64,000 bases of DNA from a virus: the IMG/VR virus record IMGVR_UViG_3300014325_000011, positions 1 through 64,000 of that record; one strand, written 5' to 3'. How positions within the stretch are numbered: the first letter of the stretch is position 1; each line of letters starts with the position of its first letter. A program made the translations under genes and the position numbers. The notes beneath the pieces are model-generated. The model saw nothing but the letters and a program-made list of their open reading frames with translations. It had not been told where the DNA came from and ran no database searches. This document shows, piece after piece, positions 26,000 through 58,752 of the stretch.

Positions 26000-26407
26000 T
26001 TGGCCAGCGTGCCATGCGGCGTGCTCGAACGCGCGCCGACTCGTGATGTTGCGTCCAAGATGGGCGTCAGCAGTCCTCCCCGTGACCTCCGCTTCGACAT
26101 GCGGCAGGTCCGCCAGCTCCTCGGACTCCCCGAACCCGGCGCCGCCAACTGGCGTGAGCATGCCGCCTGCATCGGACTCGATGTCGACGACTTCTACGCC
26201 ACGGTCGGCGCAAGCGTCGAACCCGCCCGCCGTATCTGCAACGGCTGCCCGGTCCGCCGCGCCTGCCTCGACGAGGCCATCAACAGGGGTGAGCCCCACG
26301 GACTGTGGGGTGGCATGACCCCTGGACAGCGCCACAGAGAAGCGAAGCGCCGCGGGATCGCGGTCCCCGTTGAGTCGGACAGCGACGTCGACGAGGTGGC
26401 CGCATGA
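26000..26407 (+). CDS. whiB: WhiB-family transcriptional regulator
   Basis: W...AAC...F...ARRICNGCPVRRACLDEA...E.HGLWGGMT..QR; AGGAG RBS 6 nt before TTG. Confidence 0.93.
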   Translation: MASVPCGVLERAPTRDVASKMGVSSPPRDLRFDMRQVRQLLGLPEPGAANWREHAACIGLDVDDFYATVGASVEPARRICNGCPVRRACLDEAINRGEPHGLWGGMTPGQRHREAKRRGIAVPVESDSDVDEVAA

Positions 26408-27236: not shown

Positions 27237-27563
27237 ATGAACCGCGACTTGGCCAACGAACCGCCTCGCGACCGGTTTACCGACGCCCAGTGGGCCCGGA
27301 TCCGGATCGGCCGATGCCCCGAGCGGGGCTACATCACCCCCGACCTGCCGTACTTCTGCAACCTGCCCGCAGTCCCCGGCGAAGTGCTGTGCGACAGCCA
27401 CATGATCGCATACCTGGCCGCGGAGACAGAACCATCGCCGGCCTGGAACGACCAGGAGGCCCGTCCGCCGGCCCCGGTCTCGCCGGCCACCGTTGCCGTT
27501 CTCCTCTTCGCCGTGGCCGCGAGCCTGGCGATCATTCTTCATCTGCTTGGAGTCCTCAGATGA
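27237..27563 (+). CDS. membrane protein
   Basis: Cys/His motif and a C-terminal TM helix. Confidence 0.6.
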   Translation: MNRDLANEPPRDRFTDAQWARIRIGRCPERGYITPDLPYFCNLPAVPGEVLCDSHMIAYLAAETEPSPAWNDQEARPPAPVSPATVAVLLFAVAASLAIILHLLGVLR

Positions 27564-27949
27564 CCTCGAGTCCCTACTTTGGCCGCGAGCGGCAACCAGT
27601 CGAAGACCAGCCACTCGGGTACGTCGACCAGTACGACGACGACTACGAGGACAAGGCCCCGACAGTTCCGCAGCGCACGACCTCGACGGTGAAGGACCGT
27701 CTGGCCGTCTGGTTTTACGGTTCCACCATTGAGGGGTGGACGCCGCGGATTGTCCTCACCGCCGCCGGCCTGTTCGCCCTGACCGGCTGGCATCTGCGCA
27801 ACGGCGCCGCCGCCGGGCTCTCCCTGATCGCCGTCCTCTACTGCGTCCAGATTGGGCGGTCCTCACGGGTCGGCCGGTTCTGGTTCGCCCGTCCGATTGT
27901 CGGGGCCCTGTGCGCTCTCCTGCTCACCACGCTGGTGCTCGTCCGATGA
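27560..27949 (+). CDS. multi-pass membrane protein
   Basis: ATGA overlap; about 3 hydrophobic segments. Confidence 0.6.
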   Translation: MTSSPYFGRERQPVEDQPLGYVDQYDDDYEDKAPTVPQRTTSTVKDRLAVWFYGSTIEGWTPRIVLTAAGLFALTGWHLRNGAAAGLSLIAVLYCVQIGRSSRVGRFWFARPIVGALCALLLTTLVLVR

Positions 27950-28230
27950 AGCCGCCGTCGGACGTCCCCAACACAGCCTCCCGCAGGCTGCCCCCGTCCG
28001 TTCTCGCCTTCACCGCCGCGCTAACCGTCATCGGCCTGGCGACTGTCTTCCACCGTCTTCACGGCGGCATGTTCGTCTCCCTGCTGCTCATCGCAGCAGG
28101 CTGGTCGACCGTCCGCCTTGTCGCGCTCGGATTCCGCCGCGAGAAGGCCACTGGCTGGTGGAAGCGCCAGGCAGCACTCTCGGTCGGTCTCTTCGTCGCC
28201 GCGTTCGTGACTGCGGGGGTGATCGGCTAA
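27946..28230 (+). CDS. multi-pass membrane protein
   Basis: ATGA overlap; 3 hydrophobic segments. Confidence 0.6.
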   Translation: MKPPSDVPNTASRRLPPSVLAFTAALTVIGLATVFHRLHGGMFVSLLLIAAGWSTVRLVALGFRREKATGWWKRQAALSVGLFVAAFVTAGVIG

Positions 28231-28703
28231 TGGTCGACACCGACACCGCAGTCATGACCCCACGCGGCGGTTCGGGCGTAGCCGCCCCACGTGCCGGCAG
28301 CTCGGTCTCCAAGACTGAGCCGGTCGTGCTGTCCGGGTTCGCGAACTTCGTCGCGGCGAACGCCCAGCCGATGCGCTGGCGCGACCTCGGCTGGGTTCAC
28401 AGGGCCAAGCCCGGAGAGCGTCCCCCGAAGCTCAGCGCCGAGGATCGGAAAAAGCAGGCCAGCGAAAACGGCGGCCTGTCCGACCGGGGCACATGGAATG
28501 TCCACCTCGCGGTCTTCACCGGGCTCTGCGTGGTCGGCACGGTGGCGCTCCTCATCGCCTGGACCATCAGCGTCGTCGGCTGGATCTGCCACCTGTGCTC
28601 GTCCCACACGCTGCGCCTCGCCGCCGGGCTTGTGATCGGCCTACTCGGCTGCTGGGCGGCAGCCCACTTCGGCCATGTCCACGTCCACGTGTGGCGTAGC
28701 TGA
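28230..28703 (+). CDS. membrane protein
   Basis: TAATG overlap; 2 C-terminal TM segments. Confidence 0.6.
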   Translation: MVDTDTAVMTPRGGSGVAAPRAGSSVSKTEPVVLSGFANFVAANAQPMRWRDLGWVHRAKPGERPPKLSAEDRKKQASENGGLSDRGTWNVHLAVFTGLCVVGTVALLIAWTISVVGWICHLCSSHTLRLAAGLVIGLLGCWAAAHFGHVHVHVWRS

Positions 28704-28740
28704 CCACCTCCTACGCCCTATGAGAGAAGGTCCCAATCCG

Positions 28741-28968
28741 ATGGCCAAGGTGGCTGTTGGCCTGCTCGTCACGCTGTCCGTCGGCATACCCCTCGGATTT
28801 GTCTGGCGGCGGCGTGTGCTCTGGCCCGTTGCGCTGCTGCTTGTCGTCTGCGGCATGACTCTGTGTGTCACGACCGGCTTCTACCGAGCGGGAGCGCGCT
28901 GGCAGGACGACCTGAACCAGTGGATCAGCCAGGCCCGCAAGCCGGCGATCGCGGGCAGCACACGATGA
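28741..28968 (+). CDS. small membrane protein
   Basis: GAAGG RBS; 2 TM segments. Confidence 0.55.
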   Translation: MAKVAVGLLVTLSVGIPLGFVWRRRVLWPVALLLVVCGMTLCVTTGFYRAGARWQDDLNQWISQARKPAIAGSTR

Positions 28969-29768
28969 GCGCCAAGGGCAAAGGGCGGCGGTGGCCAACG
29001 GTCAACGAGGCCGGCATCTTCGGCGTCGGCCTCGCCGCCGCCGCCTTATCCTTCGACACGTTGAAGGGCCTTGCCGGGCTGCTTGCCTACCCGTGGGCCC
29101 TGACCTACCTGTACCCACTGGCCTACGACCTGTACGGGCTGATCGTCGCCCGGGTGTGGCTTGCCGCAGGCGCCCAGTCGAAGAAGCTCCGCAACTGGGC
29201 GATGTGGAACACGATGCTGTCGATCGCTCTGTCGGTCGCCGCGAATGCCCTGTACCACGCACTCATCAACGGCCTGTGGACGAAGGTCGAGCCGGGTCTG
29301 GACGGCCAGCCGGCGCTGCACGTCGCGATTCCGGTGGTGATCGCCGCGTCGGCTATCCCACCAATCGCCCTCGGCCTGGTCATCCACCTGTACACGGTGA
29401 TGACCCGGGAACAGGTCGAGTCGGCCCAGACGGTCCTGCCAACCCCGTCTCCTACGGCAGACGGACCGATGACGGCACCATCCTTGGCGGACGCCGCCGC
29501 CGCCCGGACCAGCATGGCCGACACCGAGATCCTTGACGCAGAGGTGGTCGACGAGCTTTCCGCCACGTCGGGGTCGTCGCAGACCCGGGCGGCAATCGAA
29601 TCCCCGGAAGCGTCCAAGAAGTCCGCGGTCGTCGCCGAACTGATCCGCCTCCGCGACGAGGAAGGCGTGAGCTGGTCGAGGCGTGGACTCGTCCCCGACC
29701 TTGCCCGCCAGTTCGACGTGTCCCGTTCGCTTGTCGAGCAGGCGAAGACCGTGGCGGCGAAGGGATGA
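28965..29768 (+). CDS. DUF2637 / Spd-like membrane protein with C-terminal HTH
   Basis: AALSFDTL.GLA...W..TYLYPLAYD...LSVAANA..H...SAIPP.AL...HL; LARQFDVSRS HTH. Confidence 0.75.
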   Translation: MSAKGKGRRWPTVNEAGIFGVGLAAAALSFDTLKGLAGLLAYPWALTYLYPLAYDLYGLIVARVWLAAGAQSKKLRNWAMWNTMLSIALSVAANALYHALINGLWTKVEPGLDGQPALHVAIPVVIAASAIPPIALGLVIHLYTVMTREQVESAQTVLPTPSPTADGPMTAPSLADAAAARTSMADTEILDAEVVDELSATSGSSQTRAAIESPEASKKSAVVAELIRLRDEEGVSWSRRGLVPDLARQFDVSRSLVEQAKTVAAKG

Positions 29769-31756
29769 GACGCCTTCTGGCGTGGGCGGCGGCGCTGGTC
29801 ATTGTGGTCGGCGCCGCCAGTCCGCTCGCGCTCGCCACCCCGGCCCACGCGGACGGCGTCAACGTCGGTGCCGCGATTGCCTTCGCGCGGGCGCAGGTCG
29901 GCAAGCCCTACGTGCTCGGTGCGAACGGGCCGAACTCGTGGGACTGCTCCAGCCTCGTCCAACATGCCTACGCCGCCGCCGGCCTCGCCCTGCCGCGGGT
30001 GACCACAGAGCAGATCGGCGCCGCCGGCTGGGTACCCCTCTCGCAGATCCAGCCCGGCGACCTTGTGTTCCGCTCTGGGTCCGAGGCCGAGAAGCCTGGC
30101 CATGTCGGTCTGTACGCAGGCGGCGGGCAGGTCATCGAAGCCAAGGGCTCCGCCTGGGGCACCGTCGTCACCCCCCTGTCGGTGTGGCATCCCCTCGCGG
30201 TGATCCGCCCCGGCGCGCCGGGCGTCAACGGCTTCATCGACCAGGCTGCGGCCCGGACCGGTGTTCCCCGGGATCTCCTGCGTGCCCAGATTTGGCATGA
30301 GTCCGGCTTCAACCCGACGATCGGTTCACCTGCCGGCGCGCAGGGCATCGGCCAGTTCATGCCCACCACTTGGAACGACGGGCACGGCGGCGGCCGTGGG
30401 GTCGACGGCAACGGCGACGGGAAGAGGAACATCCTCGACCCGGCCGACGCCATCCCTGCGATGGCTGACATGGACGCCGACCTGATCCGCGCCAACAACG
30501 GCGACATCGGCATGGCCCTGGCCGCGTACAACGCCGGACAGGGAGCCGTCAACAAGTTCCACGGCATCCCGCCTTACACAGAGACCCAGAACTACGTCAC
30601 GAACATCCTTGCCTCCGCAGACCTGAAACCCGGCCGGATCGACCTCCATCCCACCGCGCCACCGGCCCCGCCGATCGCCACACTGGTCCGGGAAGCGGCC
30701 ATCGCCGCACTGCCCACACCGGTACTTCCCACCAGCGTTGTGGACTGGGTAGGAGACCTCACCTGGGCTCTACTCACCATCGCCGCCGGGCTGACGCTTC
30801 TTCGCTGGCTCGCCCCGCATCTCTACACAGCATGGAAGGCCCGCGCGCAGAAAGCCACACGCCGCATGTACGCCACAGTCCGTACCCGGCCAAGGCCACA
30901 GCGCAGCACACCGACCGCCCGGTGGATCGCGCGGGAGTACACCGCGCGGGCCACAGTCGCCGCGGAACGAGGTGCGGTCAAGGGTGCGGCGATCCGCGAC
31001 GGCCGGGCCTATCGCCACACGCGCCTTGCTGTCACCACACGGCGCGCCCAGCCAACACCACACCGCTCCGGACGAGCACCGCATAGGCCGCCGCTGACTC
31101 GCCACACCACACCCGGCAGCACACAGGGTCGCCCCGTCATCCTCGCCGTCCTGTCCGGGCTGCGGTCAGGACTCGGCTGGCTCGCCACACTGCGCCGGCC
31201 CCCGAACACCACACCGCTTCCGAACACCACACAACCCGGGTCGACACCACATGCCGGAAGGCCACACGCTTACGCGCCCCCGCCGAACACCACACCCACC
31301 CCTCCGGCCGACACCACACCCCTCGTTGGAGTGGTCGAAGCCAGACCACACCGCCCTGACTGGACACCGCACACCAGGAGCCGACCCATGGACCTGCCCA
31401 CCCCGCTGTACAACGCGAAGTGGCGCGAACATCTGACGAACCCCAGCTTCGAGGCCGGTCTCCAGACCCGGCATGCGATCACCTCCCTCGAACTCGACTA
31501 CACACACGAGGTCGACGCCGTCGCCGAATACCTCATGGAGCTGTGCTCGGGCCTGTCCGAAGCACTCACCGTCTATCACGACGAGGTGCATGTCCGCGAC
31601 TACGACGAGTCGATCGTCGTCGACATCGCCGCTGCCGCCGAAGACCTCAACAGAGCCGCGAACAACCTGTTCGCAGCCCACAAGGCGTTCCCCGAGAAGC
31701 ACCCGGACTACTTCAAGGTCAAGGGCGCCCGCGGCATCGAACGCATCGGCGCCTGA
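29765..31756 (+). CDS. Secreted NlpC/P60 + lytic transglycosylase protein with TM and a long repeat-encoded extension
   Basis: Signal peptide; GKPYVLGANGPNSWDCSSLV...PGDL...GHVGLY; ESGFNP...AGAQGIGQFMP.TW...ALAAYNAG...ETQNYV; possible separate start at 31388 (AGGAG RBS). Confidence 0.85.
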   Translation: MRRLLAWAAALVIVVGAASPLALATPAHADGVNVGAAIAFARAQVGKPYVLGANGPNSWDCSSLVQHAYAAAGLALPRVTTEQIGAAGWVPLSQIQPGDLVFRSGSEAEKPGHVGLYAGGGQVIEAKGSAWGTVVTPLSVWHPLAVIRPGAPGVNGFIDQAAARTGVPRDLLRAQIWHESGFNPTIGSPAGAQGIGQFMPTTWNDGHGGGRGVDGNGDGKRNILDPADAIPAMADMDADLIRANNGDIGMALAAYNAGQGAVNKFHGIPPYTETQNYVTNILASADLKPGRIDLHPTAPPAPPIATLVREAAIAALPTPVLPTSVVDWVGDLTWALLTIAAGLTLLRWLAPHLYTAWKARAQKATRRMYATVRTRPRPQRSTPTARWIAREYTARATVAAERGAVKGAAIRDGRAYRHTRLAVTTRRAQPTPHRSGRAPHRPPLTRHTTPGSTQGRPVILAVLSGLRSGLGWLATLRRPPNTTPLPNTTQPGSTPHAGRPHAYAPPPNTTPTPPADTTPLVGVVEARPHRPDWTPHTRSRPMDLPTPLYNAKWREHLTNPSFEAGLQTRHAITSLELDYTHEVDAVAEYLMELCSGLSEALTVYHDEVHVRDYDESIVVDIAAAAEDLNRAANNLFAAHKAFPEKHPDYFKVKGARGIERIGA

Positions 31757-32183
31757 CCGTCACCACACAGAACGTCCGACCTTCGAGAGGCCCGACCGCA
31801 CATGTCACCGGAGCCCCGCGCCCAGCTCGCCGTCACCACACGGCGCACCACCCCTGCCCGGGAACACCACACCCCCGCTCGCCACACCACACCGAGGTTC
31901 CGTCTCGCTGTGGCCGCACCCTCCGTGGCTGTGGTCGCCGCGGCGGTGGCCGGTGTGGTGATCGGCCTGTGGTGGGTCGTGCTGCTGTGTGGTGTTCTCG
32001 CGGTCACCACGGTCGGGTTGGTAACGGCCCGGCGGGGTGTGGCCACAGGGCTCCGCCGGGAACTCGTCACCGCCGCGGCTGGTGTGGTGACGGTCGCCGT
32101 TGCTGCGGCGGCCGGTGTGGTGATCCATCTTGCGATCCCCATCGTCATCCTCACTATCGGGGCAACGGTGCGGATCACCACAC
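31033..32183. repeat. CACCACAC octamer cluster
   Basis: 12 exact forward copies and 4 exact reverse (GTGTGGTG) copies, plus variants. Confidence 0.85.
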
Positions 32184-33721
32184 ACCCGACCACACGGGCT
32201 CGCCGTGAAGCCGAGAAGGCCACACAGGCCCGCCAGGCTGAGCTTGTGGCCTACGCCGACGACTGGCCACGCATCGTCCGTCTCGCGAAGCTTCCGAAGG
32301 ATGTTCTTCTCAACGGTCCGGTCATCGACCGCGCCCCGCTCGGACGTACCTACCGGGTCTGCACCCGCAAGGAAGACGGCGACATCGGCTTCCTCGCGGG
32401 CATGGTGCCCGGTCTGACCGTGGCCCTAGATCAGCCCTGGGGTGCGGTCACTGTCGAGGTGTCGAACAAGTGGCCGCGGGAGGCGTTCGTCCACGTCAAC
32501 GACGGCGATCCGCAGGAAGTCGCCCGCGCCACCACCGAGATCCGGCCTGTCGACACGATCGTCGACACGGAACTGTTCGTCGGCGCCTACCGGGCCGACG
32601 GGTCACCGTATGCGCTGCGCTGGTTCGACTCGGAGGTTGGCACCCGCCATCAGATGTCGGTTGGCGACATGGGCATGGGCAAGTCGTCGATCAACATTCG
32701 TGCGTTTGCCCAGCTCCAGGACGCCAGAGACTGGACGATCGTCTGTATCGACGGCGCCCGACGAGACTTCGGCCCGTGGGCGAAAGCGGGGGCCTTCTTC
32801 CGCTACGCCACCGACCCGGCGGACGCCCTGAACATCCTCCTGACCTTGGAGTATGTCCTCGAAGGCCGCGAGCAGTTCATGGACGACAACGGCTGGCGAG
32901 TATGGCAGCCATCGGCCCTGCACCCGGTCCTCGTCGTACTCATCGAAGAAATTGCCAAGTATGCGGAGCATCCCGTTGTGGGCCGGAAGATTCAAAGCAT
33001 TTTGGCCCGTTCGTCGAAGCGGATGCGCGCTGCCGGCATCAAGTTTGTGACCTCCACGCAGACAGGCACAGGCGGCGGTGTTGGCGGCTACGAGTTCCGG
33101 CGGATGATGCAGGACCGGCTGCACTTCTACTCAGTCGAGTCGACAGGGTTTCTGGTCCGCTCGAAGCCTGCCTGGCCGGGAGACATTGGCGAGTTCGCCG
33201 GCTACCTGTTCGCCGAGTCGCTTCGCGAGAAGACCGGGATGCTCATCAAGGCGGCGTGGACGCCGGACGAGGACCGGCCGGACATCATCGCGAACATCGC
33301 CGCGCACATCGCCCGTCCGGAGGATGAATGGCTGGCCGCCGAGCAGGCCCGGGTCCGTGCGGAAATGCCCGCCGACGACGCTCCCGCCACTCCGGCATCC
33401 GCCGTTCCCGCCTCTGCGGATACGCAAACTGTCGAGGGCGAGTACACGGTCCTGTCGGTCCACAAGCCGCCCGTGAAGACCCTCCCCCCGAAGGCGCCGG
33501 AGATGACGTGGGACCAGGCCAGGCGGACTTTGAATGCCATGGTCGAGGATGCGAAGGAACGCGGGGTGGTGATGAAGGAGATCGAGGCCGTGACGGGGCG
33601 GAAGCGCACGTGGATTCGAGACAATCTGACGAATCCGGCGATCGAAGCAGGGTCGATTGTGTGTGTCCGCTCGGGTCGGGATCATCGGTATACGGCTGTC
33701 GAGTACGCCTCCGCCGCATGA
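31802..33721 (+). CDS. TraB/FtsK-SpoIIIE-like conjugative DNA translocase
   Basis: N-terminal TM helices; Walker A GDMGMGKS; Walker B LVVLIEE; RAAGI.FV.STQ; C-terminal wHTH-like domain. Confidence 0.8.
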   Translation: MSPEPRAQLAVTTRRTTPAREHHTPARHTTPRFRLAVAAPSVAVVAAAVAGVVIGLWWVVLLCGVLAVTTVGLVTARRGVATGLRRELVTAAAGVVTVAVAAAAGVVIHLAIPIVILTIGATVRITTHPTTRARREAEKATQARQAELVAYADDWPRIVRLAKLPKDVLLNGPVIDRAPLGRTYRVCTRKEDGDIGFLAGMVPGLTVALDQPWGAVTVEVSNKWPREAFVHVNDGDPQEVARATTEIRPVDTIVDTELFVGAYRADGSPYALRWFDSEVGTRHQMSVGDMGMGKSSINIRAFAQLQDARDWTIVCIDGARRDFGPWAKAGAFFRYATDPADALNILLTLEYVLEGREQFMDDNGWRVWQPSALHPVLVVLIEEIAKYAEHPVVGRKIQSILARSSKRMRAAGIKFVTSTQTGTGGGVGGYEFRRMMQDRLHFYSVESTGFLVRSKPAWPGDIGEFAGYLFAESLREKTGMLIKAAWTPDEDRPDIIANIAAHIARPEDEWLAAEQARVRAEMPADDAPATPASAVPASADTQTVEGEYTVLSVHKPPVKTLPPKAPEMTWDQARRTLNAMVEDAKERGVVMKEIEAVTGRKRTWIRDNLTNPAIEAGSIVCVRSGRDHRYTAVEYASAA

Positions 33722-33749
33722 TCGTTAACCCCACTCCCCCACCGGGGGT

Positions 33750-33862
33750 GGCTGCACGCTGCGTGATGCTGCCGGACCCTGCCGTTGATCTACCGTCTCG
33801 CGCACGCGCGCGCGTAAGGGTGCCTGTGGCAGGGTCCACGGCAGCGGCAGCGGCAGCATCCC
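33750..33862. repeat. clt-like locus: nested inverted repeats and GGCAGC tandem repeats after traB
   Basis: GATGCTGCCG/CGGCAGCATC; GGACCCTGCC/GGCAGGGTCC; (CGGCAG)x3; central CGCGCACGCGCGCGCG. Confidence 0.55.
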
Positions 33863-33870
33863 AGTAGGGG

Positions 33871-34125
33871 CTATCCGTCACTCTCCGTAGCAGACTCCGG
33901 GGGTTGGTGAGTCTGGTTCCGCGCCGCGTTCGCCGCCGCGACGACCCGCTGAACCGTCTTCCGCGTAATGCTGAGAATGTCCGCGATCTCGTCGTAGTCG
34001 AGCCCGGCGGACACCGCGGCCAGGATCGCGGGGTCCCGCTCCGAGGTGTATTCGCGGTGCAGGTCGGCGAGTCGTCTGAGGTTCGCTCGCGTGGTGTCGG
34101 CGCTGGCCGGTGGGGGAGTGGTCAC
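33871..34125 (-). CDS. Small HTH repressor-like protein
   Basis: RDPAILAAVSAGLDYDEIADILSITRKTVQRVV. Confidence 0.7.
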   Translation of the reverse strand: MTTPPPASADTTRANLRRLADLHREYTSERDPAILAAVSAGLDYDEIADILSITRKTVQRVVAAANAARNQTHQPPESATESDG

Positions 34126-34147
34126 AGAGGCGAGTCTACCGGGCGGG

Positions 34148-34185
34148 ACCACACATGGGACATGATGTCCCATGTGTGGTATGGT
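34148..34185. promoter_or_regulatory. Perfect 16-bp-arm palindromic operator overlapping a TG-N-TATGGT -10
   Basis: ACCACACATGGGACAT-G-ATGTCCCATGTGTGGT (34148-34180) between divergent genes. Confidence 0.7.
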
Positions 34186-34191
34186 GGAGAT

Positions 34192-37100
34192 GTGAGCGAG
34201 AACCGGCATCCCGAAGGGCTGCTACCCGGCGACCTCATCGAGTCGCCGTTCCGGTGCGGCCTTCGGATGCGGTTCACCCACACCGGTATCGCGCGACTCG
34301 CCGACGCCATCGACAAGCCGAACCCGGAACTGGACCCAAACGAGCCTGTGCGGCTCGTGTTCGGCGAGGACCCGACGCATGGCGGGTTGGACCGGTGGGT
34401 GCTCGATCTGAACGGCACGGTGCGGCTTGTTGAGGCCATGCCGAGAAAGGGGGAACGGTGAACCTGACCGCAGCACGGGAGCAGGTTCTGCGCGCTGTCG
34501 CCCGGGGCGAGGTGACTCGCAACAACCGTGACGACACGCGACCCTGTTGGGATCGAGGCCGCCGGAAGGCGGTCACGGTGCAGGTGAAATGGCTCCGTAA
34601 TGCGGGGATGGTCACCTACAACGTCGACCTTCGTGCAGGGTGGACGCCGGTCACCCTCACGCCTGCCGGCCGCGAGTGGTTGGACGCCAACCCGGAGAAG
34701 GGAGCGGACTGAGATGGACACCGTGTTCGTGCTGACGTTCACCGACTGGACGAACTCCAAGAGGTGGGGTGACCGGCCGTTCGCGGCGGCCGTCTCACTG
34801 GACCTGGCGAAAGCCGATGCCGCAGATGTGGCCACGCACAGTCTGGGCGACATGGTCGTGGACGACTGGTCGGAGATCGTCGATGGCGACTGGGAGACGC
34901 CGGTGTGGGTCGCCCCGGTCGTCGAGCCGTTCGTGATGCGACGGCAGGTTGGCGTGTTCGAGATCCGCGCCTTCAAGGTTCGGGAGGGCTGAACGGTGGC
35001 CGACTTGAACTGGGTCCAGGTGGGCGCGAAGGTCGCCAGCATGGGCCACACCTCGCTGAGCATCACAACCGTTGAGAAGATCACCGCAACGCAGATCGTC
35101 CTGGCGAACGGAAGCCGTTACTCGCGCAACACGGGCCGCAAGGTAGGCGCCACCGCCTACGACACGCACGAGCTGCTTCCGGTCGACCACCCGCGGATCC
35201 GCGATCGTCGAATCCGCGCCCAGATCCGCCAGCTCGGACACAAGGTCGACGAGCTGTGTCTCGGCATTAAAAGCAGCGACGAGGCCGCGTCGGTGCTGGC
35301 CGAGGTTGAGAAGGCGGTTGCGGCGACCCGTAAGCGAATCACTGAACTTGGAGGGGAGAGCTGATGGACCCGCTGTTCGTGCTGTCCCATGTGGCCTACA
35401 CCGGGTACACGGTCGGATCGGTCTACCCGTTTCGCTCGCTCGCCGGCGCGCAGAAAGCGGCTGACAACTGGGCTGAGGACGTGTCTGGCACGCCGACAGG
35501 TGAGTTCGACGCCTGGCGCGGCTGGGAGCACATCGACGGCGACGACTGGGACCGCACGATGTGGCGCCGCCCGCTGTTCTACAAGGGTGCCGAAGTGGGC
35601 GCGCTGGAGATCGTCCAGTTCGACGAGATCGGCGACTAGCCATGCAGCGCGGCGGCCGTACCGGCGGCGTGTCCGACTGGTCGGCCGGCCGGATACACGG
35701 ACGGTCGGCCAGCCGCGCCGCATGGAGACAACAGGCAGTCGACGACCAGATGGGGGAGGGCATGTTCTTCGCCGGTGACGAGTATGCGGGCGACGAGGTC
35801 ACCTCGGGGCCGTACAGCGGTCTGGATGACCCGGACGCCGACGACTACCAGTACGACGATCTTGACGCCGATGTGGCCGACGGCTGGGACTACGACCGCG
35901 AGTACGACGACAACGAGGGGGACGACTGATGGGACTCGACATGGCGAAGGTTCGCGAACTCGCGGACGCGGCTGGTGACAGCGGCGACGCCGTGTTCCAA
36001 CTTGGCCAGGAGTTGCTGGGCGCCGAGTACCGGATCGACCGGTCGCTTCACCAGATCCGCGCCGCCTTGGACGAGATCGACAGGGAGCGCGCCCGCGGCC
36101 GGGAGACCGGCGGCATCAACGGCCTGTCGGGAGGCGAACTGGTCGAGCTGTTGACGTCGTTGGGTGAGCGGAACGCGCTGATCCGGGCTGCGAAGCGGCT
36201 CGGCGTCGACGTGACGGCGCTCTGAGGGCTGACATGGACGCACAGGCGGCGGCTGTCGCCCGGGTTGCGGCGAAGAGTCGCCAGTTCTGGGAGGACCTGG
36301 AGACGGCCGCGGTCGGTCTCGGCCCGGACGAGGACCGGCCGACACCCATGGGCCACATCCCGCATCCGGGGGACAGTTGCCGCGCGGTGGGCTGTCCGGG
36401 TGTCGACGGCTACCGGACAGGCGACTGGGGCGACCTGTACGGCGATGTGGGCGACGACGAAGACAACGGGCCCTGCGATTTCGCCTGGGAGGGCGAATGG
36501 CCCGGTGTTGACGGCCCGGTGCTCGTCTGCCAAACCCACGGACAGAAGTCGCCCTGCGAGCACAGCCCGGAGTTCGACGCGTACGAGCGGGAGTGGCCTC
36601 ACCGTCCGTTCGACGTGAGCGACTACCCGCCGAAGAGGGTCTGAGTAAGGAGCCTTCGCCCCGCCGTGAGCGTGGGGTGTGAAACCCGGCGAAGGCGCGC
36701 GGACAGACACAGGACTGAGGAGGAAAAGTGTTCGAAGATCCATCGGGCAGCCTTCGGGACGCCATCAGCGCCATCAGCCTAGGTCCACATCCGGGCGACC
36801 CCGAGTGGCTGGCCGACTGTGTGGGGAACGACCGCCAAGCTGACATCAAAGTCGGGTCGGCGGTCACGCCGAACCTTCGGCCGGGAGTGGATGCGCGTCG
36901 CGCGCCGGTCGGGGTTGTGCTGTGGCGGGAGGTGAAGTTCGGCGTCGGGTACTGCGGCGTGCGCTGGGGCGACGGCCGCGAAGGTCAGGCGCCTGCCTGG
37001 TCGCTGCGGATCGCCTGACGAGCGCAGAACCTCTGGCGCGCTGATTCAAAGCGCCGCCGGGTGGACCCGGGGCAGAGGCACGTAGACAACAGGAACGATC

Positions 37101-43553: not shown

Positions 43554-44654
43554 TCAGACCTGCGGCCGAACTAGCGCTGTCGCGGTCGCGGGTGGCAGCA
43601 CCGCGCGCAGAGTCAGCCCGGTCAGCGCCGCTGTCAGCGCATCCAGCCGTGACAGCACAGGCGTCAGATCAGCCCCACCCGCGGTCGACACGGGCAACGC
43701 TTTGATGGCGGTGAGAACGGCGACAAGCTGCTGGGAGAGTGCGTTCAGCGCGGCTACGACTTCGCCAGTCGGCCCGAGGTAGTTGACGATCTGCCCGACC
43801 TCGGACGAAATCGCATCTGACCGGGCGGCAATAGACAGGTCGCCCTTGTTCCAGCCGAGCGCGGCAATGATCGCGTTGACACCGTTGTAGACGGTCTGCT
43901 CCAGCGACAGGATCGCCTTCTCGGTGGCCGCCCACGCAGGCTGGCCTGCGCCAGTGCCCTCGTTGAGGACGGCGCGGACGATGCCTGCCATCTGCTGGGC
44001 CGTGGGGTCGTCGAGCACGAGACCTCCAAGAGTGGGGAGCCATTCGCGCAGGACGCGGGAACTGTCCGACTTGCCGGGGATACCGGGCTGGACGGCCTGG
44101 TTGGTGTACTGGCGGGCGACGACCTGTGTCCGGTCCCAGCCGGCGGGCAGCGGCATCGCCGAGTCGGCGACGGCGGCGTTGTAGGTCGCGAGGTGCAGAC
44201 GGCGCCAGCCCGGCGGCAGGATGCCCGCGGTCAGGCCGACTGGTGTGGCGTACCAGATGCCGCTGTAGATCACGCCGGTTGGGTAGCCGTACTGGACGAG
44301 CCGGTTGGCGAAGTCGGCGGCATGCCGGCCGCCAAGGTTGGCATGGTCGTTCGGGTCTTCGGCATCCAGACACACCCAGTCGCGGGGACCGGCACCACCA
44401 GCCGCTTCGAGGGCAGCGACGAAATGATCGGCTTCGGCGATGCCGCTGGACTGGGACGGCCGCGCGAAATGGTAGGCACCGCGGGCCAGACCCAACGCGT
44501 TGGTGTGCTGCCACCAGGTGGCGAACAGCGGGTTGGTGTAGCCGACACCTTCGGTGGCTTTCATCATGAGCCGGTCGCGGCCCGAGCGGGCGTAGGTGGT
44601 GAGGTCGAGGCCGGCTTGGTAGGGGTAGGAGACGTCACTGAACTCGGGAGGCAT
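43554..44654 (-). CDS. Endolysin, GH25 muramidase
   Basis: DVS..Q...KATEG..Y.NP.F...GAYHFARP...LDAE...IYSG...QYT. Confidence 0.88.
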   Translation of the reverse strand: MPPEFSDVSYPYQAGLDLTTYARSGRDRLMMKATEGVGYTNPLFATWWQHTNALGLARGAYHFARPSQSSGIAEADHFVAALEAAGGAGPRDWVCLDAEDPNDHANLGGRHAADFANRLVQYGYPTGVIYSGIWYATPVGLTAGILPPGWRRLHLATYNAAVADSAMPLPAGWDRTQVVARQYTNQAVQPGIPGKSDSSRVLREWLPTLGGLVLDDPTAQQMAGIVRAVLNEGTGAGQPAWAATEKAILSLEQTVYNGVNAIIAALGWNKGDLSIAARSDAISSEVGQIVNYLGPTGEVVAALNALSQQLVAVLTAIKALPVSTAGGADLTPVLSRLDALTAALTGLTLRAVLPPATATALVRPQV

Positions 44655-44751
44655 GGAGTCTCCCGTAATCGACAGGTGGTTAGCGGCCACATTTCGTGCT
44701 AGGCTTAGCTAGCAGCGGACGCGTTCCGAGCGGCAGCCACAGGGGGACCAC

Positions 44752-53067: not shown

Positions 53068-56000
53068 TCAGACCCCGGCGATACGGGCCAGACCGTTGCT
53101 GGGGTTCCGCCGGTTGTACCGGAGGGATTGCTTCTGGGTGGACTTGAAAACCTTCTGGCCGTCGATGACGACATCGGACGCCTGCACCGTCAGGTTGATC
53201 GTGATGCCGCCTCCGCCGCCCGACGGCTGCATCCCCACCCAGCCGCCGCCAGCCTTCCCGCCGGCCAGAATCGACTTGGTCTCGTTGGCCGGGTGGATGT
53301 AGGCCGGTGCGCCGAACACGGCCAGCTCCGGGCCACGCTCACCGACGAGCACCGCCTGGCCGACGGGCGGGGAACCACCCTCGGCAAACGGGGCAATCTT
53401 GTTCAGGGTGCCGACGAACCCGCCGACCGCCTTGGCGACACCACCGATACCTCCGGTGATGGTGCTGATCGCATGACCGATCGAGTCGAAGATCGGTTTG
53501 AGGACGCCCCAGATCGTGGTAACTGTGGTCTTGATCCCACCCCAGATCGTGTCCCAGGTGATTTTGAGGGCGCGGAGCGCGGCACCGATCGCCGTGTCAA
53601 GCGCCCCGCCAATCGCGTTGAACGTCGGCGACAGGAACGACGTCCACACCGTGGACACGGCAGTGTGGATCGCCCCCCAGATCGTGTTCCACGTGGTCTG
53701 CAAAGCACGCAGCCCAAACCCGATCACAGCGTCGAACGCCGAAGCGATCGCATGGAACGTTGGCGACAGGAAACCATTCCAGATCGCGGAGAGGGCTGTT
53801 TGAATAGCACCCCACACGGCGTTCCATGTCGCCTGGAGCAGACGCAGCCCGAATCCGATGACCGCGTCGAACGCTGTTGCGATCGCGTGGAACGTGGGCA
53901 GCAGCACCGAGTTCCACACAAACGACACGGCGGTGCCAAGCGCCGACCAGATCCCGTTCCAGATCGCCTGAGCTAGGCGAAGGTTACCGATGATGAACGT
54001 TTCGACGCCTGAGACAATCGCATGGAAGGCGGGCAGCAGCACCGAGTTCCACACCCAGTTGACTGCGGTTCCGAGCGCATTCCAAACGGTTCGCCAGGCA
54101 GTTTCCAGCCAGCGGATCGCCGTTCCAATCGTGCCGGTGACGACCGAGGCAACACCCTTGCCGAACGGTTCGAGCACGTTGTGCCAGAACCAGAGGACCG
54201 CCTTGCCGATCGCCCGGTAGGCGATCTCCCAGGCGAGCACCTGCAACCGGATCGGCAGCAGCAGAAGGTTGATCGCCTTCGCGATGGCCTTGAGGATCGG
54301 CTCCAGGAAATGCCAGGTGGCGAGCGCTGCTGTTCTGATCGCACCCCACGTGACCCGGGCCGCGGTCGTCAAAGCGCCTGTGACGGCCCGCCAGGCGGTT
54401 TCAACCCCACCGACGGTCGCCCGAAATGCTGAGACGAACGGGCGAGCGACGGCCGACAGGAACGAGATTGTCGCCCGCCACGCTGTCGACAGTGCCGATC
54501 CGACCGCATGCCAGGCGGTGACGATCCCACCCCACGCCGCCTTGAGGCCGCCGATCATGCCGTTCCAGCCGGCGACGAAAAACCCGGAGACGGCATGCCA
54601 CGCGGTCACCAGCGCGCCGAGGGTCGCCGACCAGGCGATTTTGAGTGCGTCCCAGACCGCGAGCGCGGCGGTTTTCATCGCACCCCAGACGGTCGACCAG
54701 TGCTTGACGAGTTCGTAGATGGCGAAACCGAGCAGCGCCAGAGCCGCGACGATGAGAATCACAATCGCTGTGATCGGTGCGGCGGCGACCTCTGCGCCGA
54801 CCAAGGCAATCCCGAGCGCAACAACAGCCTCAATCACACCGTAGATCCACATGGCGACGGAAAGTGCCATAAGGGCCGCGAACGCTATGACGATGCCCTT
54901 TGTCAGGTTCTGATGGCTCGCGAAAAACTTGGCGATCGCTTCTAGCTTCGGAATCAGCCAGTTGCCAAGCTGGATCATCAGCGCCTTGGCGGACATCTCC
55001 AGTTGCTTCAACTGCTGGGAAAACGAGTTCGCCTGCGTGGACGCGAACGCCTTGTTGATGTCGCCGGTCGCGGAGCCGGCAGCCTTGACCTTCTCCGTGT
55101 AGACCCCGTAGGCGCCGATCATGTCGGAGATCGAGTTGCCGCCCTTGGTCCCGAACATGCTGGTCAGGGCGATCTGCTTCTTCAGATCGGCTTCCTTGCC
55201 CGAGCCGTACAGCTTGTCGAGCGACATCTTGATGTCACCGATAGCCTTCGGCAGGCCGCCTGTCGTAATGTCTTTCGACAGCTTGTCTACGGACAGGCCC
55301 ATCTCGTTGAAGTATTTCGGTGCCGTCGCCGCGGGATGCAGCAGATACTTCATAGTGTTCGTCATCGCCGTGCCGGCAGCGGCGCCGCGAAGGTTCATGT
55401 CACCGAACAGGGCGAGAGACGCCGTCACATCGGTGATCGACAGGCCATAGTTCTTCCAGATCACGACGTTGCCCTTGCCGAAGGCGTCGGACATGTCCTG
55501 CATGGACATGTCACCTTCACCGACAGCAGCAACGAGCTGACCGGCCGCCTTGGAAAGGTTTTCCATCCCGGGCAGGCCGGAGACCATCGCCGCGTCGAGG
55601 GCGTTGGTTACGTCGACCAGGTTCGCCCCGGAGACCGCGGCGGCCTTACCGGCGATCGTCAGGACATCCATCGCCTTCGGGGCGCTGGTCCCCATCGACT
55701 TCGTGGCGGCCTCGACGTGGAGCAGCGCTTCGGCAAGCGAATCCGGGTCTTGGCCGATTTTGCCGGCCAGGGCGAGCACTTGGCCTTTGAGTGCGTTGAC
55801 CTGCGGCATGGTCATGCCCAACTGGGAGTTGAGCTTGACCATCTCCTTGTCAAAGTCGGCGGCCATTTTGACCGACTCGGCTCCGACGGCGATGAATGCG
55901 ACGGCGGACGCTTTGCCGAAGGCGGTGACGGCTTTGCCCATGGAGGCGACGGCCTTCTCACGGGACGCGGCAATCTTCGCGTCCGCGGCGGCCTGCGCGG

Positions 56001-56325
56001 CTACTTGGGCGTCGAGGGCGGCCTTCCACTCGATCGTGCCTACGGTGGCCGCCCGAGTCTGGGCAACCTGCATCGCCAGCGCGTTGCGGTCTGCGGCAAC
56101 AGCCTGCTTCGCCCATTCGGCGTCCCACGCTGCACCCCACTTCGCGGCACCCTCAGCTCCGGACAGGGCCATAGCGTCGCTGGCGGCTTTAACCGCTGCG
56201 GCGCTCGACTCGGCCATCTCCTTGACGGACGCGCCGGCCTCTTTCATGCCAACGGCGAACTCGGCCGCATTGTTGACCAGCTCGATCATGACCGGGGGCA
56301 GAAGGCCCCTCACGGGAGACCCCAT
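53068..56325 (-). CDS. Tail tape measure protein
   Basis: 1085 aa; AADFDKEM, G..AGTA; Trp-spaced amphipathic repeats; FAEGG...VGERGPE. Confidence 0.93.
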   Translation of the reverse strand: MGSPVRGLLPPVMIELVNNAAEFAVGMKEAGASVKEMAESSAAAVKAASDAMALSGAEGAAKWGAAWDAEWAKQAVAADRNALAMQVAQTRAATVGTIEWKAALDAQVAAQAAADAKIAASREKAVASMGKAVTAFGKASAVAFIAVGAESVKMAADFDKEMVKLNSQLGMTMPQVNALKGQVLALAGKIGQDPDSLAEALLHVEAATKSMGTSAPKAMDVLTIAGKAAAVSGANLVDVTNALDAAMVSGLPGMENLSKAAGQLVAAVGEGDMSMQDMSDAFGKGNVVIWKNYGLSITDVTASLALFGDMNLRGAAAGTAMTNTMKYLLHPAATAPKYFNEMGLSVDKLSKDITTGGLPKAIGDIKMSLDKLYGSGKEADLKKQIALTSMFGTKGGNSISDMIGAYGVYTEKVKAAGSATGDINKAFASTQANSFSQQLKQLEMSAKALMIQLGNWLIPKLEAIAKFFASHQNLTKGIVIAFAALMALSVAMWIYGVIEAVVALGIALVGAEVAAAPITAIVILIVAALALLGFAIYELVKHWSTVWGAMKTAALAVWDALKIAWSATLGALVTAWHAVSGFFVAGWNGMIGGLKAAWGGIVTAWHAVGSALSTAWRATISFLSAVARPFVSAFRATVGGVETAWRAVTGALTTAARVTWGAIRTAALATWHFLEPILKAIAKAINLLLLPIRLQVLAWEIAYRAIGKAVLWFWHNVLEPFGKGVASVVTGTIGTAIRWLETAWRTVWNALGTAVNWVWNSVLLPAFHAIVSGVETFIIGNLRLAQAIWNGIWSALGTAVSFVWNSVLLPTFHAIATAFDAVIGFGLRLLQATWNAVWGAIQTALSAIWNGFLSPTFHAIASAFDAVIGFGLRALQTTWNTIWGAIHTAVSTVWTSFLSPTFNAIGGALDTAIGAALRALKITWDTIWGGIKTTVTTIWGVLKPIFDSIGHAISTITGGIGGVAKAVGGFVGTLNKIAPFAEGGSPPVGQAVLVGERGPELAVFGAPAYIHPANETKSILAGGKAGGGWVGMQPSGGGGGITINLTVQASDVVIDGQKVFKSTQKQSLRYNRRNPSNGLARIAGV

Positions 56326-57528: not shown

Positions 57529-58752
57529 CTACTGGAAAGTCGAACTGGAGATCGCCGACTTGGTGACGATCGTGCAGGCCCCGAAGCCGCCGGAGGCGCC
57601 CACGTTGGTCGTGTTCCCGATCGCCGAAAAGTCGGTTTCGACGGTCGTGTAGTCCTGGCCGCGGCCGACCTTCGCACCCCGATAGGACACCGACTGCATG
57701 GCAATGTCGATGCCTACCAGCGACGCCCCGCTACCGGCTTCGAAGTTGACCGTCAGGGCCGGGTTGGTGGCGTTCAGATAGCGAAGGAACTCGGTTTCGT
57801 CCGCGGCGATGAACGTCAACTTGCCAGTGGCGGCGAGCGGCCCGAGCCACACGGCATAGGGGCCCTGAACGCCGTCAACGGTGTTCAGCACCTTCACGTC
57901 GCGTTTGAGCTGCAACTCGCCGGACTGGACGTAGAGAACCGGGCTACCGCCGATCGACGTCACACCCCGCCACGCGGGAAGCGGCGGACTGATACCCGAC
58001 CACGACGAGGTCGGCTTGGGGATGACACCGGACGGCCAGCCGGTGAGCTTCGCCGACCAAGTCAGCAGAGCTTCCGACGACCAGGTGATCGTCAGTTCGG
58101 ATACGACGCTTCCCGGGTAGGCACGGGCCTTGTTCGACGAGGCACCGGTCAGACCAGAGAAGTCCGCGATGGTCAGCGATTCGGGCTGGCCGCCGCCGTA
58201 CACACCAATGTTGTTCTTGATGTTGAAGGTGTGGCTGTACGGGGCCGACCCTCCGGTGACGGCATAGTCGCCGAGCAGGGCGCCGAGAAAATAGCCGATG
58301 CTCTCCGGGTACACGTCACCGGAGGTGCTGTACTCCGAATGGATGACACCGGGAATCGCCCCGAACAGGCCCACCTCGGAGCCGCGGTAGCCCATGTCCT
58401 CAAGAATGGTCAAGTTGTCGACGGGCTCAAACGTCTTGACCGGGATGTACGCGGTCGGGGCGGCGTTCGCGGCGGTGACGACGACAAGGTTCCCGGCACT
58501 GTGCGCTGCGACGGTCGCCGCACAGGTCACCGTGGTCCCCGACACCGACGTATAGGCGACCGTCTCAACGGTTGTGCCACCAGACGTCGGATCGTAGATG
58601 GTGAGGTTGCCGGAGTTCGGCCAGTTGGTGGTGTCCGAAACCGACAGCGACGTCGCCGACTGGTTCGCGCTCGCGGTCAGGAACGCCCGGTACTTGTCGA
58701 GGGACACGCCTAGGTAGGAGAGATTGGTTGCCTGTGCCGGAGCCGCGCTCAC
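57529..58752 (-). CDS. Major tail (tube) protein
   Basis: Position; Y.HTF, SLTI.D, YPG..V.EL.I, G.LT motifs; N-terminal inserted beta domain. Confidence 0.8.
   Translation of the reverse strand: MSAAPAQATNLSYLGVSLDKYRAFLTASANQSATSLSVSDTTNWPNSGNLTIYDPTSGGTTVETVAYTSVSGTTVTCAATVAAHSAGNLVVVTAANAAPTAYIPVKTFEPVDNLTILEDMGYRGSEVGLFGAIPGVIHSEYSTSGDVYPESIGYFLGALLGDYAVTGGSAPYSHTFNIKNNIGVYGGGQPESLTIADFSGLTGASSNKARAYPGSVVSELTITWSSEALLTWSAKLTGWPSGVIPKPTSSWSGISPPLPAWRGVTSIGGSPVLYVQSGELQLKRDVKVLNTVDGVQGPYAVWLGPLAATGKLTFIAADETEFLRYLNATNPALTVNFEAGSGASLVGIDIAMQSVSYRGAKVGRGQDYTTVETDFSAIGNTTNVGASGGFGACTIVTKSAISSSTFQ

Follow-up and report, generated by a model that had tools for sequence, protein, structure and literature searches.

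Gene content of the run and its predicted pump

The virus record IMGVR_UViG_3300014325_000011 of IMG/VR consists of one contig of 115,125 bp, the ends of which overlap by 124 bp, and its first 64 kb (positions 1 to 64,000, hereafter the window) carry at 27237-33721 a module of co-oriented genes, most of whose junctions overlap by 1-4 bases. The module encodes five small predicted membrane proteins, a DUF2637-like protein, a cell-wall hydrolase and a predicted membrane-anchored FtsK-fold ATPase, referred to here as the pump, and an array of repeated octamers lies across the junction of the last two genes (Table 1). Since the high G+C content makes raw lists of open reading frames (ORFs) useless, genes were called from the third-position G+C (GC3) frame plot together with start-codon choice, while the transmembrane (TM) helices of the module proteins were taken from a hydropathy scan only. 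An earlier description made from the DNA letters (the sequence-only reading) had reported this co-oriented, coupled run of five small membrane proteins, a DUF2637-like protein, a hydrolase with NlpC/P60 and SLT domains and an FtsK-like ATPase, and the gene calls, Pfam matches and hydropathy agree with it; Pfam likewise bears out its statement that the run continues from whiB on a molecule which also carries DnaB, tail and lysis genes.

Table 1. Positions of the module genes, of the elements beside them and of selected phage genes (L001 is the corresponding locus of the related contig G001; HTH, helix-turn-helix)
Feature	Position	Strand	Basis or remark
WhiB-family regulator	26000..26407	+	Pfam Whib, E 1.3e-18; heads the co-oriented genes; L001 has a homologue in the corresponding position
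Small protein 1, 108 aa, one C-terminal predicted TM helix	27237..27563	+	GC3 frame plot, hydropathy
Small membrane protein 2, 129 aa, predicted TM	27560..27949	+	ATG overlaps the preceding stop by 4 bases
Small membrane protein 3, 94 aa, three predicted TM helices	27946..28230	+	4-base overlap; kept in L001
Small membrane protein 4, 157 aa, two predicted TM helices	28230..28703	+	
Small membrane protein 5, 97 aa, two predicted TM helices	28675..28968	+	Shorter if the start is 28720 or 28741
DUF2637-like protein, 267 aa, hydrophobic N-terminal half, C-terminal HTH-like tail	28965..29768	+	
Cell-wall hydrolase, 663 aa	29765..31756	+	Strong Pfam matches: NlpC/P60 E 1.7e-19, SLT E 8.9e-17
Octamer array, candidate TraB recognition repeats (clt)	31033..32183	both	16 of the 19 genome copies of CACCACAC
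TraB-like membrane-anchored FtsK-fold double-stranded DNA translocase (predicted), 639 aa	31802..33721	+	After a 45-bp gap from the hydrolase
Conserved single-copy intergenic element	33722..33870	.	Short G+C hairpin right after the stop, then a hairpin of ~100 nt at 33761-33862
Small convergent HTH protein, 112 aa	33871..34209	-	Weak Pfam HTH_23/GerE below cut-off; L001 homologue in the corresponding position, 39% identical
GH25 lysin	43554-44690		Pfam
Tape measure	53068-56325		Pfam
Tail tube	57529-58752		Pfam
Serine integrase	110702-112165		Outside the window

The pump, which has the Walker A motif GMGKSS and the Walker B motif VLIEE, begins with TM helices, continues with a middle domain and the motor, and ends in a winged helix. 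Hydropathy peaks were found at aa 44-62 and 98-116, the helices of the AlphaFold2 (AF2) model span 39-127, and this N-terminal region aligns to the TM region of a profile of TraB-like proteins (described below). For the AF2 model (predicted local distance difference test, pLDDT, 76), the top Foldseek matches are FtsK motors on double-stranded DNA (dsDNA; E 1e-14), followed by TcpA and EccC, so that TcpA-like coupling proteins appear as second-tier fold matches only. The winged helix is modelled at pLDDT 80-90 with helices at 570-587, 591-598 and 602-615 and strands at 619-624 and 627-632, and the TraB-like profile matches it with its C-terminal domain. No Pfam match to the FtsK alpha or gamma domain was obtained for the pump.

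An exhaustive phmmer search of the pump against 1.84 billion representatives returned no more than about 10 relatives over the full length, with identities of 31-36% and with Candidatus Protofrankia californiensis as the source of one. Proteins of 650-760 aa that match in the motor form the next tier, and all 20 of the 20 tested have plasmid_TraB as their top NCBIfam family (best E 1.8e-117), while at least the seven of this tier that were scored individually lie far under the 800-bit cut-off of that model (NF041214). Two profiles were therefore available for comparison, namely A1, built from the phage pump family, and A2, built from the next-tier TraB-like proteins. In hhalign, the alignment of A1 with A2 (probability 100, E 2.3e-64) extends over 578 columns and takes in the TM region, the middle domain, the motor and the winged helix, and the single pump protein aligns to A2 at E 5.6e-34 over 467 columns. 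As a calibration, aligning A2 with pIJ101 Tra, a protein defined by experiment, gives E 4.3e-21. The alignment of A1 with canonical FtsK, by comparison, covers the motor only (E 1.2e-11, 296 columns), and A1 matches the FtsK motor chains of the PDB at E 8e-11. The grouping of the ATPase with TraB-like proteins and not with chromosomal FtsK, as suggested by the sequence-only reading, is borne out by the difference between the full-length and the motor-only alignment, and the pump is supported at the profile level, not by the curated TraB model, as a predicted very distant, full-length member of a broad TraB-like group.

Relatives, octamer array and hydrolase

The same synteny, for which a search in other phages had been proposed, was found in a complete phage, G001 (locus L001), an IMG/VR contig of 115,477 bp with direct terminal repeats and a CheckV completeness of 100%. 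G001 is collinear with the window from ~20 to 47 kb, with the module in the same place, and the whole genomes of the two phages are collinear and circularly permuted. The two pumps share 30% amino acid identity and no DNA match, which makes the pump the fastest-diverging syntenic gene. In addition, records of two to three contigs, up to 115,143 bp long, contain module proteins that are identical or 99% identical. Judging from these comparisons, the module is integral to the phage backbone and ancestral to the phage lineage.

A further relative, L002, is a 179-kb metagenome contig which carries the same two-domain hydrolase before a TraB-like gene. It was obtained in the second of two metagenome scans, the first of which gave no pump relative, and none was found in the scans of genome contigs with the pump and with its Protofrankia relative. 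In L002, two tyrosine recombinases precede the TraB-like gene, and directly after it lies the gene of a canonical FtsK, complete with alpha, motor and gamma domains (L002:12444-14867). A GntR regulator gene (L002:16374-16733) is located 4.5 kb downstream, and a WhiB-domain protein is also encoded nearby. This setting looks more like that of an integrated element than that of a phage.

The octamer CACCACAC is present 19 times in the phage genome, and the 16 copies of the array (12 forward, 4 reverse) leave three copies in the other 114 kb, which corresponds to the chance level; besides a triplet repeat, it is the only clustered 8-mer of the genome. The array copies extend over the hydrolase linker, the 45-bp intergenic gap and the first 380 bases of the pump gene, occupy all three codon phases, and encode unrelated peptides, which read NTTP, HHTP and TPHR where the protein is disordered and GVVI or GVVT within the membrane helices. 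Because the octamers fill all three phases, both strands and the gap and encode unrelated peptides, the constraint acts on the DNA. At the same junction, G001 carries a different octamer, TCCGCAAC, with 17 of its 26 copies in 1.7 kb, again in multiple phases and on both strands, one copy being intergenic. The L002 octamer, CCGCGAGC, has 15 of the 19 copies found in a 21.9-kb locus, in one phase per gene and partly as a 21-bp tandem repeat. According to earlier reports, TraB loads on repeated 8-bp motifs of clt, the TraB recognition sequences (TRS), through helix alpha-3 of its winged helix, and clt loci consist of 4-9 short direct repeats together with inverted repeats, in or beside the tra gene (PMC4170104, PMC4447253, PMC3583192). 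By analogy, the best clt candidate is the CACCACAC array and not the locus after the pump gene, and a role in cis is proposed for it.

The locus after the pump gene had been described in the sequence-only reading as a clt-like repeat locus. Its repeats are real, with nested inverted repeats, an alternating CG core and (CGGCAG)3 in the hairpin at 33761-33862, but they form a conserved hairpin and not a specificity site, the TRS-like feature being the octamer array instead. The DNA of the element at 33722-33870 matches L001 at 82% over 176 bp. Between the two phages, by contrast, the adjoining pump genes give no blastn match and the flanking genes are only 30-40% identical in protein. The hairpin shows compensatory pairs in L002. 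No Rfam family was found for it. An element that stays nearly unchanged between phages whose octamers differ and whose pumps are 30% identical cannot determine specificity, and the locus 33750-33862 was rejected as specificity site on this ground. The element might serve as the terminator between the convergent genes, encode an RNA, or act in replication initiation or in transfer.

The hydrolase is organized in the order of signal peptide, NlpC/P60 endopeptidase, SLT lytic transglycosylase, TM helix (aa 328-346), low-complexity linker and a rare C-terminal domain, for which a word search gave no relatives beyond the protein itself. Over its full length it is 48% identical to the protein encoded at L001:7889-9904, and its low-complexity linker carries octamers. 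When the two linkers are compared (30900-31400 versus L001:9000-9600), the protein sequences can hardly be aligned, and yet each linker is densely filled with the octamer of its own phage. This disordered stretch seems to act as a vehicle for DNA sites. The pair of hydrolase and pump was found at three loci, namely in the window, L001 and L002.

Phage context and small genes

IMGVR_UViG_3300014325_000011 is a complete temperate tailed phage, integrase-bearing, of a high-GC actinomycete. In addition to the tail and lysin genes of Table 1, a subtilase-type protease and DnaB are encoded in the window, and a portal, an intein-bearing terminase and a capsid-like protein were identified beyond it on the same contig (all by Pfam). 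The G+C content lies between 64 and 71% along the window, with a uniform composition and no island at the module, which is surrounded by early-type small genes. Cultured phages are distant, the best match of the portal being 32% identical to that of a Thermoanaerobacterium phage. The largest tail protein has no match among phages in tblastn, the module DNA has none among phages or plasmids in megablast, and the pump protein has none among phages or plasmids in tblastn (phage records at 1e-5). Outside the window, the phage also possesses a Xer-like tyrosine recombinase (94777-95826), in addition to the serine integrase, and a DpdA gene for 7-deazapurine DNA modification (105182-106234).

Among the small genes, small protein 1 has a Cys/His-rich N-terminal part (CPERGY...FCNLP...CDSH) before its C-terminal membrane anchor, and may be a zinc-binding tail-anchored protein. 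Neither small protein 1 nor small protein 4 has a match in Pfam, PHROG or PADLOC, PADLOC returned nothing for the module, and a scan for promoter and terminator consensus sequences was uninformative. The DNA over 27668-28248 is 81% identical to L001. For the DUF2637-like protein, the Pfam DUF2637 score is 19.8 bits, under the cut-off of 22.8, while a feature search of a protein atlas supports DUF2637 (score 0.92, 26 of 30 matches) and PHROG 733 is matched at 2e-6. A word-index search with this protein returned only itself, tblastn against plasmids returned nothing, and L001 has at its position a 357-aa protein which is not alignable with it. On the other side of the pump gene, the small convergent HTH protein (33871-34209) is a possible regulator. 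A perfect 15-nt inverted repeat, CCACTCCCCCACCGG, at 33731-33745 and 34107-34121 brackets its gene.

Possible roles of the module and comparison with known systems

From sequence comparison, it is fairly probable that these genes constitute a TraB-type dsDNA translocation module, present as a backbone part of a temperate tailed actinophage lineage, and a capsid-free spread of phage DNA is proposed as its function. The winged helix would bring hexamers of the pump onto the octamer array, in the way that TraB is loaded on the TRS of clt, and the hexamers would then drive the circular phage genome through the membrane. The hydrolase would locally open the wall, and the small membrane proteins could form a channel or an anchor, as Spd proteins do. 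In this way, the phage genome, whether excised, replicating or plasmid-like, might, with no capsid, cross mycelial cross-walls or enter a neighbour in contact with the cell. Between related phages, a change of the octamer would go along with a change of the winged helix, and each phage would thereby have a transfer specificity of its own. By analogy with TraB systems, such capsid-free spreading of the phage genome is plausible. A bolder version, to which we give tentative and distinctly limited credence, is that of a true second, capsid-free infection route, in which the fast-evolving pump reads a private array near the origin and pushes the replicating genome origin-first, and co-switching of octamer and winged helix creates transfer-specificity groups. 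Should phage DNA indeed be moved by the pump, virions would not be the only route of phage spread, lysogen formation and gene flow in filamentous actinomycetes, and phages would grade into conjugative plasmids along a continuum. Moreover, the built-in peptidoglycan hydrolase bears on how classical TraB systems cross the wall, and the presence of different octamers at one site in two collinear phages offers a clean natural experiment on recognition specificity.

Several observations weigh against capsid-free transfer by a TraB-type module. The pump scores 17.4 bits with Pfam FtsK_SpoIIIE, below the cut-off of 24, and does not match NCBIfam plasmid_TraB (NF041214) at E 0.01. The direct alignment of A1 with pIJ101 Tra is weak (E 7e-7, 168 columns), and the A2 set was drawn from the pump's own matches, which biases the comparison of A1 and A2 toward the pump. 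To our knowledge, classical TraB systems operate without a dedicated hydrolase. No sequence similarity was found between the small proteins and known Spd proteins, including by plasmid tblastn, and pIJ101 SpdB carries no DUF2637. The Spd-like traits of the module are those of architecture only, that is, small predicted membrane proteins translationally coupled with the pump; according to a previous study, spd genes form translationally coupled operons and are often without mutual similarity (PMC4170104). No GntR-type repressor (TraR/KorA; kil-kor) was found among the ORFs scanned at ~20.9-36.6 kb. The array of L002 may be protein-driven, because it keeps a single phase per gene and is partly a tandem repeat. 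Finally, a mycelial lifestyle of the host is a presumption.

The detrended cumulative GC skew also counts on that side, as it falls to its global minimum at ~32.4 kb and peaks near 96 kb, roughly half a genome further on, which fits an origin at the array. The octamer array, the hairpin, or both might accordingly represent a bidirectional replication origin with iterons and an unwinding element, and the pump might serve genome segregation and not cell-to-cell transfer, for instance by moving or clearing copies of the phage or of a plasmid prophage across closing septa or into prespores, an explanation which we hold to be rather unlikely. The skew minimum coincides with the array in the phage and falls ~1 kb into the pump gene of the collinear G001, where the maximum again lies about half a genome off, the origins of Streptomyces theta plasmids use 7-8-bp direct repeats and inverted repeats (pWTY27, PMC3583192), and the genome encodes a Xer-like tyrosine recombinase elsewhere. 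However, no initiator gene adjoins the array, the DnaB region being ~20 kb off, the DnaA-box search gave no cluster here, about one third of the skew dip is due to the C-rich array and linker, and the phage and G001 are related and not independent. The octamer, furthermore, differs between the relatives in step with their fastest-diverging gene, the pump. Origin and pump loading site could also coincide.

That the module acts instead on the envelope of the infected cell, through superinfection exclusion, host takeover or as a lysis aid, with an ATPase that exports something else or blocks incoming DNA such as that of plasmids or other phages, seems quite improbable. PHROG 1358 does place phage FtsK/SpoIIIE-like proteins under moron and host takeover, FtsK-like genes of no assigned role are present in Bacillus, mycobacterio- and Streptomyces phages, and the module lies among early-type small genes. 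Yet PADLOC found no matches, the lysis cassette (GH25 lysin and protease) is separate, at 42-45 kb, and exclusion leaves unexplained both the cis array on the phage's own DNA and the predicted sequence-reading winged helix conserved across the family. As for an independent fragment of a plasmid or of an actinomycete integrative and conjugative element (AICE) nested in the phage, or an assembly chimera, the less phage-like setting of the pair in L002, which has two tyrosine recombinases, a GntR gene and a canonical FtsK as neighbours, would speak for it. Neither an integrase nor a Rep was found among the ORFs scanned at ~20.9-36.6 kb, though, the only integrases are distal, at 110.7 kb (serine) and 94.8 kb (tyrosine), and att-like boundaries were searched only by a repeat scan of 33400-34200. 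Since G001, an independent complete phage, is collinear across the module and its flanks, such a nested fragment or chimera is very unlikely; it was rejected on this collinearity, the lack of an adjoining integrase or Rep and the uniform composition, and the occurrence of the identical or 99%-identical proteins on two to three contigs likewise stands against it. The sequence-only reading had also argued against a simple nested AICE, and the collinearity with G001 supports this.

Among known systems, the TraB-type dsDNA translocation module proposed here has its nearest likeness in the TraB/Tra-clt-Spd transfer systems of Streptomyces plasmids and AICEs (pSVH1, pIJ101, pJV1 and pWTY27). Going by the descriptions of these systems in PMC4447253, PMC4170104 and PMC3583192, the shared traits include a membrane-anchored FtsK-like motor of hexameric type with a C-terminal winged helix, and repeated motifs of 7-9 bp which, together with inverted repeats, lie within the tra gene or next to it; in its architecture, the operon of small, translationally coupled proteins with predicted membrane helices also resembles theirs. 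The pump differs in that its similarity is found at the profile level only, with the curated model unmatched. The array of the phage comprises 16 octamers over 1.15 kb in coding DNA and is located at the 5' side of the pump gene, whereas theirs has 4-9 repeats in 50-175 bp. Furthermore, the phage operon includes the NlpC/P60 and SLT hydrolase and lacks an adjacent GntR kil-kor repressor, and the carrier here is a 115-kb tailed phage.

A partner hydrolase is known from other conjugation systems of Gram-positive bacteria, such as CwlT of ICEBs1, PrgK of pCF10 and TraG of pIP501. Like the phage hydrolase, these cell-wall hydrolases are two-enzyme, membrane-tethered proteins, which combine a glycosidase-type domain with an NlpC/P60 or CHAP peptidase and are encoded inside the transfer operon. 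They differ in their partners, which are type IV systems of VirB4/VirD4 with a relaxase, and in the transfer of single-stranded DNA. Among the module ORFs, no VirB4, coupling protein or relaxase was matched by Pfam or PHROG.

The FtsK orienting polar sequences (KOPS) and SpoIIIE recognition sequences (SRS), with their translocases FtsK and SpoIIIE, share with the phage the FtsK motor fold and a winged helix reading 8-bp motifs. However, KOPS and SRS are polar and dispersed genome-wide, whereas the phage octamer is confined to one 1.15-kb locus, and a KOPS-type genome-wide polarity signal was rejected for this reason.

FtsK-like genes have been annotated in many Bacillus phages, mycobacteriophages and Streptomyces phages, none of which covers 80% of a TraB-like protein. 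In the cultured, temperate Streptomyces phage Gilgamesh, gp10 (MN234216; L006:4440-6353; 637 aa), annotated as 'FtsK-like DNA translocase', matches the TraB-like profile at E 1e-37 from the TM region to the motor, and the pump family, including the winged helix-turn-helix, at E 3.5e-19. Unlike the pump, gp10 passes Pfam FtsK_SpoIIIE, and it has no annotated hydrolase or DUF2637 neighbour. Five of the ten gene-strand copies of CGACCCCG in Gilgamesh cluster at the 3' end of gp10, as a weak 8-mer cluster.

The idea of a dual-mode element that moves as a phage and by conjugation is not new, as pZL12/phiZL12 (GQ919031) is a precedent with a tra locus. According to PMC3583192 and PMC4487206, it is a Streptomyces plasmid-phage with a plasmid and a lytic cycle, the conjugal transfer of which needs the tra gene and two of its neighbours. 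pZL12, like its relative pSLE1, shares with the phage studied here the presence of virion genes and a TraB-related FtsK-like gene on one molecule: pZL12.71c matches the TraB-like profile at E 5e-20, and in IMGVR_UViG_3300014325_000011 tail tube, tape measure, portal, terminase and capsid-like genes lie on one contig with the pump. The two belong to different lineages, as tblastn of the pump finds nothing in the phage records, pZL12 included. pZL12 has annotated ParA/ParB, and its tra neighbours are other proteins without a Pfam family. The present phage is set apart from pZL12 by its serine integrase, by the hydrolase partnered with its pump and by its large octamer array. Compared with this precedent, what is new is a divergent TraB clade missed by standard models, the partnership with a hydrolase, and a coding-embedded array which switches between relatives.

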